A DNA stretch of 47,527 nucleotides, from assembly GCA_046581755.1 (NCBI GenBank), contig JAYGFR010000131.1, positions 1-47,527 on the forward strand, given 5' to 3'. The DNA comes from Nitrospinota bacterium. GTDB lineage: Bacteria > UBA8248. A program made the position numbers. Below, piece after piece: positions 43,501 through 46,500 of this stretch; position 1 is the first letter of the stretch; each line of letters opens with the position of its first letter.

Positions 43501-46500
43501 GAAACTGCGAGGGCTGAGCATAATGGCCTGGAAGGATGATTTTGGAAATCTGATGGCCAAAATCCCCGCGAGCCCGGGATTGGAAAAGGTTCCGCCGTTG
43601 CTGCTTGCGGCGCACATGGACATGGTGCCAGGGGATAAGAAAAATCCCCTGAAACCTATCCGCCCCCGCCTTATTCGGTCGGGCGGCGTCGAATGGATCG
43701 CCAGCGACGGAACCACTACACTCGGGGCGGGCGATAAGGCAGGGGTGGCGGCGATCATCGATGTCCTCTCCCGCATCACGGGAAAAGGACCCGGTTTCGC
43801 CGTTCGGCACGGGACCATCGAGGTGGCCATCACCCGCGAGGAGGAAACGACTGTCCAGGGGGCCAAAAATTTAGAAACGGCCCGGATTCCTCGAAATATG
43901 CGCTTATATTGGACGGGGAAAAGGTGTTCGAGGTCGTGTGGGAACTCGCGGGTGCCACCGAAGTGACCATCCGATTGCATGGGGGCCGTGGTGGTCACTC
44001 GGGCATCGATATCCACCGGCCGGACAATGTCAATGCGTTAAAAGTAATGTCCGAACTCGATATGCTCATCCCGCAAGGTGTGGTGAAGCGGAACGAGCGG
44101 GGGGTCGTCACTTCCATTAATGCGGGCCTTGTCGAAGGAGGGGTGGCGATCAACGCCATCGCCCGGAGGCCCGGATTTCCTACCTGGTACGGACCACCGA
44201 GCGGGCGGCGGAGGAAACTCTCCTCCGGGAGATTCGAGCGGCGGTCTCTCGCGTGGAGCGGAAATACCGCCGCCTTCAGAAAAAATTTCGGATCGAAATG
44301 AATGTCAATCATATTCTTCCGCCCTGGTCGGCGAAATCCGAGTCTCCGTTTTTTAGGTGGGTCCAAAAGGCCGGGGAGAGACTTTCCGGGAAAAAAATTT
44401 CTCCTCTTTCCATTCACGCCGGCGCCGAGGCGAACATTTATGCCAATAAAAGAAACGCCAAAGGGGAGTTCATCGAGCCGCTTCTCCTGGGCGTCGCCAA
44501 TCTTCATGCGATTCATACCACGCGGGAGCGAATTGATTGGCGCTCTCTCATTCAGGGCCGGGACTGGGTTCTTGGGATCATCCGCTTGATGGCAGAATTG
44601 TGAATTGGTCCGTAAATGGGCCGTCAGCGGACCCGCAAAAGGGTGTGAAATGACTATTGCCGCACGGGCCGATGTTGTTGGGAGTCTTCTCCGCCCCCCG
44701 GATCTTCTCAAGGCGCGAAAGGATTTCGAGGCGGGGTTCATTTCCGAGGCGGAATTCCGCGCGGCGGAAGACCGCGCCGTCGATGATGCGATCACCTTGC
44801 AGGAGGAGGCCGGCCTCACGGTCGTTACCGACGGCGAGATGCGCCGGTTATCGTTCCAAAGTCAGATGACAGAGGCCGTCGATGGGTTCGGTGCGTATGA
44901 TCTCGACGCCTTTCTCTGGGGCAATTGGCGCGGAAAGAATGAGGAATGGCGCATCGCGCGTCCCCCGTCGCTGGGAGCCACAGGAAAGCTGAGGCGGCGG
45001 CGCTATCTTTCCAAGGCGGAGTATGAATATCTTTGCCCCCGTACGCGCCAAACGCCCAAAATCACCTTGCCCAGCCCGAGTCTTTGGGTGAACTTTTGGT
45101 CCAGCGAACTCTCCGGTGCGGCCTACCCCACTCTCGACAGTTTCCTGACGGATGTGGTCGATATATTGCGGGACGAGGTGGCTGAGTTGGTCCGCATCGG
45201 GGCCGCCTATATTCAACTAGACGCGCCGCATTACACGGCACTGCTCGATCCCGGGGGCAGCGCTTTTTATGAAAGCCAGGGATGGACGAGGGACAAATGG
45301 CTGAGTCTGGGGATTGAGATGGACAATGCCGTCATGAGCGGATTCGGCGGCGTTACTTTCGGATTCCACCTCTGACGGGGGAACCAGGACAGCCGGTGGC
45401 TGGTAGAGGGCGGATACGACGCCATCGCGAAGTCGGTTTTCAAGGGGATTCGCGCAGAGCGCCTGTTGCTCGAGTACGACGATGCGCGTTCGGGGTCGTT
45501 TGATGCGCTAAGGGACGTTCCTGACGATAAAACGGTCGTCCTCGGTCTCATCACCACAAAAAGCCCCCGTCTGGAAACCCTCGAAGCGCTCAAGCGGCGC
45601 GTAGATGAAGCCGCCCGGTTTATGCCGCTGGAACGGCTGGCGATCTCCCCTCAGTGCGGGTTTTCCACATCCATCGTGGGAAACCGAATTTCCATAGAGG
45701 ATGAAAAGAGAAAGTTGGGGATCCTCGCCGAAGCGGCCGAAGCTATCTGGGGATAAGCAAGAGGGCAAGCGCATTCCCCAGAAGCAAAAAACTGCCGCTT
45801 GGAGAATTATTTCTGGGGTTTTCCGTTCCGTATTTCGTTTTGGCGGTGCTGGCGGTAAATGCTGCGGATGAGAGAGTAATAATCGAGGGCATCGCGCTTG
45901 AGTTGATCCAGCGTCTCGATATTGCGCGAGCGGAAATCCACCCCTTCGATTCCCCGAAGACCATATAAATAAATTTCATAATCATTGGCCGAGGCTGCAT
46001 AGGTCAATGGGTTAATAAAAGTGTCCACCGCCTTGCCCGAAGCGGCGCGCACCGTGGATGGCCCCAGAATGGGGAAGACCAAATAGGGGCCTTCTTCGAA
46101 TCCGAAGACGGCGAGTGTCTGGCCAAAGTCCTCGGTGTGGTAGGAATATCCCATGTCGAAAGCCACATCGAATAGGCCCGCTATTCCGAGAGTGGAGTTG
46201 ATCAAAAACCGCATTGTCGTTATATGGGCCCGCTTTCCCTCCCCTTGCAGCAGGTCGTTGGCCAGGATTACGGGCGCCTTTAGGTTCCGAAGAAAATTTC
46301 GCACCGAATCGCGGGCGGGCGCGGGAAGAATCGCCCTGTAGGCCTCGGCCAGGGGCCGGCCGATGATATCGTCCAAAAATAGGTTGAAATCGAATACGGC
46401 GCGGTTCCATGGTTCAATCGGGTCGCTCACCTCATCGCCCGGACCGGGACCCTTGCCATTTCCCGCCTGAGTGGAAGCGCATCCAGCGATTAGCGTGAGA

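Follow-up and report, generated by a model that had tools for sequence, protein, structure and literature searches.

The window, the whole 47,527-nucleotide stretch of contig JAYGFR010000131.1 that we analysed, contains on its forward strand a MetE-like gene whose frame runs from an ATG at 44650 to a TAA at 45756 and holds only one internal stop, a TGA at residue 242 in the context F-H-L-U-R-G-N-Q. The features on which the analysis turns are the following.

43259..44603, forward strand: M20 (PepD-like) peptidase gene, lying in three frames, upstream of the MetE-like gene
44650..45756, forward strand: single-domain MetE-like gene (PF01717), 368 aa with the TGA read as Sec
44683..45222, forward strand: stretch with Ser12, Glu63 and Asp191, which correspond to MetE S433, E484 and D599
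45367..45369, forward strand: His240, predicted zinc ligand, the same residue in all 73 TGA and all 173 Cys proteins
45373..45375, forward strand: in-frame TGA, predicted U242, corresponding to Cys643, a zinc ligand of E. coli MetE
45390..45402, forward strand: predicted SECIS hairpin, 5-bp stem CAGCC/GGCTG, apical loop GGT at 45395-45397, 19 nt after the UGA
45472..45474, forward strand: Glu275, predicted zinc ligand 3' of the TGA, invariant and aligned to MetE
45655..45657, forward strand: Cys336, predicted zinc ligand 3' of the TGA, invariant and matching the MetE motif PDCG in the alignment

The MetE-like gene and its host

Translation table 11 yields two ORFs from this gene, 44605-45375 and 45466-45756. 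The PF01717 domain occupies residues 9-341, extending across the TGA, and scores 70 bits against a gathering score of 21; together with the single internal stop, this bears out an earlier note on this DNA, which had joined the pieces into one 368-aa Meth_synt_2 protein read through the TGA at 45373. The best solved relative is PDB 1ypx (E 1e-43 with phmmer, 4e-63 with a profile), and the alignment of the U242 site with its H-I-C-R-G-N motif, already made in that note, was reproduced. None of the 7 matching NCBIfam models reached its own cut-off and, as had been stated, no Sec-specific model was among the matches; at 368 aa the protein does not have the length of a two-barrel MetE, nor is it, by score, an NCBIfam methionine-synthase equivalog. 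An AlphaFold2 model with Cys at position 242 shows a confident barrel (pLDDT 90.8, pTM 0.91), and an ESM Atlas search with the protein returned PF01717 clusters only. We found no promoter-like site directly 5' of the gene. This is almost certainly one gene, in which UGA is read as Sec so that a MetE-like enzyme with a single barrel is made at full length.

In two independent DNA runs (X2 and X5), contigs span the TGA with no alternative letter listed, and a contig covering 45284-45526 from an RNA library shows no differences, which records presence in that library without thereby proving transcription. The stretch is wholly or partly contained in 20/24 listed runs, the strong holders being marine, seawater or vent metagenomes.

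The gene shares the interval between pyrE and mlaA with the frameshifted PepD-like gene. This interval measures 2.9 kb in the host genome (G000), about 1.4 kb in the congener G004 and <100 bp in G001-G003, and a search with the window protein found no MetE-like orthologue in these four congeners (0/4). The indels of the peptidase region differ between strains, with X5 carrying two additional bases and X2 another indel pair, while a homologue in G008 is open over 363 codons to the contig end; the three-frame peptidase is either a decaying gene or a product of assembly errors. Elsewhere on the forward strand of the window, JAB-domain, ThiF/MoeB-like and Rrf2 genes follow one another at 35532-37301, a row that we take to be typical of sulfur-carrier biosynthesis operons, and an ORF at 38894-40324 with three GAF domains and no detected output domain runs into a GFO/IDH/MocA oxidoreductase and may be truncated.

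The host encodes the complete Sec machinery, with selA and selB on contig C136 and selD on C268 (all over cut-off, selD having an in-frame TGA of its own), as well as a 97-nt tRNA-SeC. Recoding of UGA throughout the genome was ruled out, as TGA terminates 1589/3480 ORFs of at least 300 aa and the tRNA-SeC is the sole TCA tRNA. No TGA was found in the host's FdhA-like genes. The genome further encodes a full MetH, and its other PF01717 paralogues are about 22-28% identical to the MetE-like protein.

Same-site TGA homologues and the predicted SECIS hairpin

Among 51 genomes of the host's own phylum there were five matches at 68% or more, with TGA in G000, G005, G008 and G030 and TGT in G029 (69% identity), so that a same-site TGA in three relatives, one of them (G030) from another family, was confirmed. 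The caveat that only three relatives share the TGA did not hold. The pattern H-[LIMF]-TGA-[RS]-G-N-x8-G-x-Y matched at least 119 stretches in GTDB, of which at least 100 among those listed are homologues with the same TGA at 58-74% identity (including records sequence-identical to two of the own-phylum relatives); 19 were chance matches and were excluded from homologue counts. All 100 listed homologues read H-x-U-R-G-N-Q-x-x-R-W-L and thus form one subfamily. The pattern admits the 1ypx-type and R-G-N-N subfamilies too, and a random nonsense mutation is disfavoured because the TGA is confined to one subfamily despite this permissiveness. By record titles and tree labels, the listed matches come from about 11 phyla, including Chloroflexota, Poribacteria, Acidobacteriota, Binatota, Methylomirabilota, Latescibacterota, Tectomicrobia, Gemmatimonadota, Planctomycetota and Thermodesulfobacteriota, and all 100 listed carriers are MAG or uncultured records.

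The TGA aligns to a conserved Cys with both flanks conserved, and a codon-neutral metagenome scan for this subfamily gave 15 TGA and 105 Cys genes among the 120 matches listed. In Chloroflexota, 18/351 genomes carry the gene (8 with TGA, 10 with Cys); in Dehalococcoidia it occurs in 8/201 genomes, with TGA in 8/8. A search of 251 genomes of the phylum around G067 found it in G067 only and gives no Cys control. The best 120 full-length database homologues have Cys in all cases, and 8/10 N-terminal halves that we looked up are deposited as truncated proteins of 239-243 aa, the NCBI-named ones as 'hypothetical protein'.

In a FastTree phylogeny of 144 proteins, from which duplicates and short loci had been removed, all 80 TGA rows lie inside one group of 96 (support 91), which also takes in 16 Cys rows nested among them, and at least 7 changes between TGA and Cys are needed. 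This arrangement of sequences fits one Sec gain followed by several reversions. Since the TGA rows form one tree group, the 110 TGA counts are not independent. Two near-identical genes (L054 and L120) come from records labelled Methylomirabilota and Gammaproteobacteria, one of which is probably mis-binned. Separately, G030, G032 and G033 carry two or three Cys-type MetE-like paralogues in tandem (L006, L007, L030, L165-L170), which belong to the R-G-N-N subfamily and share about 48% identity with the window protein.

Downstream of the TGA the frame is open for 125-135 codons in 68/69 closed cases among the TGA matches listed, with 31 more running off short loci, and additional breaks occur in 3/69 of the listed TGA genes. 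Over the 120 codons downstream of the TGA, dN/dS is 0.05-0.24 in 12/13 pairs, compared with 0.04-0.16 upstream; the 13th pair (L048/L096, 0.80) reflects an ungapped comparison across a difference in gene length and was dropped. The residues that separate the TGA from the next start do not vary.

In 53 TGA genomes (50 of the 100 listed GTDB loci, chosen for spread, and three more genomes), selA scored over cut-off in 49/53; selB was present in 13/13 further TGA genomes and in G102. Overall, 63/66 TGA genomes tested have selA or selB, and the MAGs G083, G092 and G099 have neither. As controls, selB was found in 9/10 Cys genomes and in 34/53 Chloroflexota without the MetE-like gene, so that co-occurrence with sel genes discriminates little.

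The bSECIS model in the available text of PMC13188914 (section 5) comprises a loop of 3-9 nt, a stem of 4-16 bp, a G at loop position 1 or 2, a spacing of 16-37 nt and an MFE of -7.5 kcal/mol or lower. The hairpin CAGCC-GGT-GGCTG lies at 45390-45402, at the 19-nt distance from the UGA that the earlier note had given, and agrees with this model in its 3-nt loop, 5 bp, first loop base G and 19-nt spacing; its energy is marginal, at -8.7 kcal/mol when the 36 nt counted from the UGA are folded and -7.1 for the hairpin alone. The same 5-bp/3-nt geometry recurs in the host's selD, where the loop is GGA and lies 17 nt downstream of the UGA. The middle loop base falls on the synonymous third position of an Arg codon and is G or T in 110/110 distinct TGA 66-mers, as opposed to 29/100 Cys 66-mers, among the matches listed, the Cys genes having mostly CGC; median stem pairing probability is 0.89 in TGA genes versus 0.01 in Cys genes. 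The loop base is missing from 9/16 Cys genes nested in the TGA group. Folding energy was dropped as SECIS evidence, the 54-nt fold of the window hairpin being no better than shuffles (z = -0.72). Pairing probability drops to 0.17-0.44 in contexts of 100-130 nt, and under coding constraint hardly any two-sided covariation remains.

We see hardly any room for doubt that SelB decodes this TGA as Sec, because the host has the machinery, at least 100 homologues carry the same-site TGA, Cys and TGA exchange at an invariant column, the downstream region is under purifying selection and a SECIS-type hairpin is present with the Cys genes as control. The Sec reading of the TGA made before this analysis is supported on each of these counts.

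The predicted zinc site and its known relatives

According to the available text of PMC7857596, the zinc ligands of E. coli MetE are H641, C643, E665 and C726, and its homocysteine contacts S433, E484 and D599; that of PMC7005905 gives the motif HXCXnC. In the window protein, H240/U242/E275/C336 and S12/E63/D191 align to the corresponding positions of MetE structures, so that both the PF01717 zinc ligands and the S/E/D contacts are present, and these residues are invariant or more than 97% conserved across 73 TGA and 173 Cys proteins. The two protein sets differ at three columns, all non-catalytic. U242 aligns to C643, and with all four ligands conserved the previous placement of Sec at the Cys of the H-x-C motif stands, as a prediction of binding. 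Very probably, zinc would be held by H240, U242, E275 and C336 and would activate a bound thiol as in MetE, a ligand geometry taken from sequence alignment.

The short 'vitamin-B12 independent methionine synthase family' of the 1ypx type (PRK06520, PRK06233) has in common with the window protein a single PF01717 barrel and the H-x-C-R-G-N motif, but the window protein scores below both cut-offs (220 against 313 and 203 against 576) and has Sec instead of Cys; 1ypx itself is annotated as 'putative' only. The catalytic domain of MetE and the core synthases MesA-D share its zinc (H/C/E/C) and homocysteine (S/E/D) residues. Unlike MetE, the window protein lacks the folate-binding half, and no Sec form of MetE or MesA-D is described in the available text of PMC7857596 and PMC7005905.

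FdhA (Mo/W) and [NiFeSe] hydrogenase are known cases in which Sec serves as a metal ligand (PMC13188914, section 7, in the text available). These have in common with the window gene the UGA with a downstream G-loop hairpin and the Sec/Cys exchange at a metal ligand, but they are redox centres, whereas the window site is predicted to be a catalytic zinc for alkyl transfer. Catalogued bacterial selenoproteins are nearly all redox proteins, and the FmdB UxxU row among the 119 catalogued families may, we presume, be a structural zinc ribbon.

Table 1 of PMC13188914, which includes the families of Haft and Tolstoy 2025 as rows, has in its available text no PF01717, MetE or H-x-U-R-G-N row among its 119 families, in line with the absence claimed previously; the same text contains neither 'MetE' nor 'methionine synthase' and does not list a catalytic zinc for methyl transfer with a Sec ligand. 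The Sec MetE-like family was not found in the available parts of BSepDB, deep-Sep and SelCysML (BSepDB Table S2 and the deep-Sep supplements lying outside the comparison), and literature searches, with the Deng 2026 candidates outside their scope, found no paper on it. The family stayed hidden because gene callers break the gene up, yielding a fragment and a 'hypothetical protein' of 240 aa. This is a real and widespread selenoprotein family, apparently undescribed relative to the 119-family catalogue.

Gene neighbourhood and proposed function

We compared the surroundings of 69 TGA loci among the matches listed (flanks of up to 4 kb) and of 71 Cys metagenome loci (flanks of 1.5 kb). In 21/69 listed TGA loci, senA, senB, selD or egtD lies within 4 kb, in several gene orders, and egtD is the direct neighbour in 9/69; the other 48/69, like the window's own gene, have no sen/egtD neighbour. 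The order is egtD-gene-senA-transporter in Methylomirabilota, gene followed by selD-senB in Poribacteria, gene followed by senA-senB in a Latescibacterota genome and senA-senB-gene-egtD-transporter in a Planctomycetota record. In G008 the gene adjoins senA and egtD as well as an ABC transporter of the betaine type, whose homologue has EgtUC as best PDB match, only about 6 bits over ProX. An mttB gene lies directly upstream in the TGA locus L046 and neighbours 1/71 Cys loci. HAL-like lyases adjoin 11/71 Cys loci (one that was checked lacks the Ala-Ser-Gly triad and has HAL as top match, ergothionase lower), and Cys relatives are also found near betaine transporters. No sen gene was found at the 71 Cys loci, within flanks shorter than those of the TGA loci, which biases the contrast. 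We read the common thread of these neighbours as N-trimethylated histidine compounds.

The 21 listed loci thus lie in or beside selenoneine (senA-senB-selD) or ergothioneine (egtD, egtU) clusters. The selenoneine pathway, as described in the available text of PMC10903977, consists of SenA, SenB and SenC/SelD, with no MetE-like member. Obligate membership of the sen cluster was ruled out by these neighbour counts and by the presence of senB in only 34/66 TGA genomes (4/21 among the Chloroflexota); elsewhere, senB occurs in 4/11 Cys genomes, in 1/53 Chloroflexota and in 12/25 own-phylum genomes without the MetE-like gene. As senB is absent from half of the TGA genomes, the MetE-like enzyme is not a required step in making selenoneine.

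Contig C118 of the host (1-6000), a different contig from that of the MetE-like gene, carries a betaine-type ABC transporter, egtD, senB and senA, a cluster predicted to confer selenoneine synthesis on this marine lineage. In G032, a broken MetE-like remnant lies about 2.3 kb from a transporter-senA-senB cluster (L334, G032:C1:2246000-2262000). In-frame TGAs also occur in 4/38 senB matches and in one further senB, in L098 (the other loci being L330, L331, L332 and L333); these five single TGAs are spread over four positions, with two of them standing in for Cys codons, and one site, which has a downstream hairpin, is common to two Latescibacterota genomes. A family-wide Sec site in SenB was ruled out by this scatter; the TGAs are possibly lineage-specific Sec codons, with mutation the more likely explanation.

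The reading that we favour, with a probability of roughly 0.6, is that of a Sec-decoded MetE-like enzyme in which selenium likely takes the place of one sulfur ligand at the predicted catalytic zinc and whose likely role is to methylate homocysteine in the metabolism of histidine betaines (hercynine, ergothioneine and selenoneine). SelB would, with near certainty, read the G-G/U-U hairpin and insert Sec, and zinc on H240/U242/E275/C336 would with high probability activate a bound thiol in the manner of MetE. The conservation of S12, E63 and D191 makes homocysteine the probable thiol. The methyl donor could be an N-trimethyl histidine derivative, acting directly or through an MttB/corrinoid partner, at close to even odds but somewhat below them; methyl salvage to methionine beside selenoneine/ergothioneine synthesis and uptake would follow from such a donor. 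Speculatively, Sec might tune the zinc site or shield it from oxidation. The activity would resemble that of the betaine:homocysteine enzyme Bmt (available text of PMC12366255), but in a MetE fold.

That the TGA is instead a nonsense mutation, an assembly error or the real stop of a split gene is very improbable. The frameshifts of the upstream peptidase in this assembly, the scattered single TGAs in senB of 5 loci and the 239-243-aa halves in public collections are what such a reading would draw on. Set against it are the recurrence of the same codon in at least 100 homologues at 58-74% identity, the agreement of independent sequencing runs, the invariance of the residues that follow the TGA up to the next start, the two zinc ligands 3' of the TGA, a synonymous hairpin constraint confined to TGA genes and the use of TGA as terminator of 1589/3480 long ORFs in a genome that is not UGA-recoded.

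The remaining alternatives accept a true selenoprotein and differ in its substrate. A general core methionine synthase like MesA/MesB, taking methyl from corrinoid proteins and linked to egtD/sen genes through the recycling of SAM spent by EgtD, would have the same zinc and homocysteine residues, and the nine listed loci with egtD as direct neighbour, the mttB genes at L046 and one Cys locus and the 48/69 listed loci without a sen/egtD neighbour speak for it. However, the protein falls below every NCBIfam methionine-synthase cut-off, the host already has MetH, the gene is patchy and was not found in 4/4 congeners with the window query, and Cys relatives adjoin HAL-like lyases and betaine transporters; we regard this alternative as unlikely, at about one chance in four. 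Less probable still is a selenoprotein whose targets are selenium metabolites or whose nucleophile is Sec, and which would methylate selenohomocysteine or selenoneine, free selenoneine from the reduced SenA selenoether by-product or carry the methyl on U242. The TGA form does occur in senA/senB/selD clusters of several lineages, as opposed to 0/71 Cys loci with a sen gene (a contrast biased by the unequal flanks), and a selenoether shunt is described in the available text of PMC10903977, but half of the TGA genomes have no senB, and on the tree Cys and Sec have replaced each other at least 7 times while the rest of the active site stayed unchanged.

Returning to the favoured histidine-betaine enzyme, we tentatively suggest, at odds below even, that the family may be the first natural enzyme family in which the catalytic zinc of a non-redox methyl transfer has a Sec ligand, with members in about 11 phyla, and may supply the missing fourth selenoneine/ergothioneine enzyme, one that would move methyl between histidine betaines and homocysteine. 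The Sec and Cys forms make a natural pair with near-identical active sites and repeated exchange, which offers a test of the benefit of selenium outside redox chemistry, and the gene neighbours are the first clue to which substrate a large, unassigned MetE-like subfamily may use.
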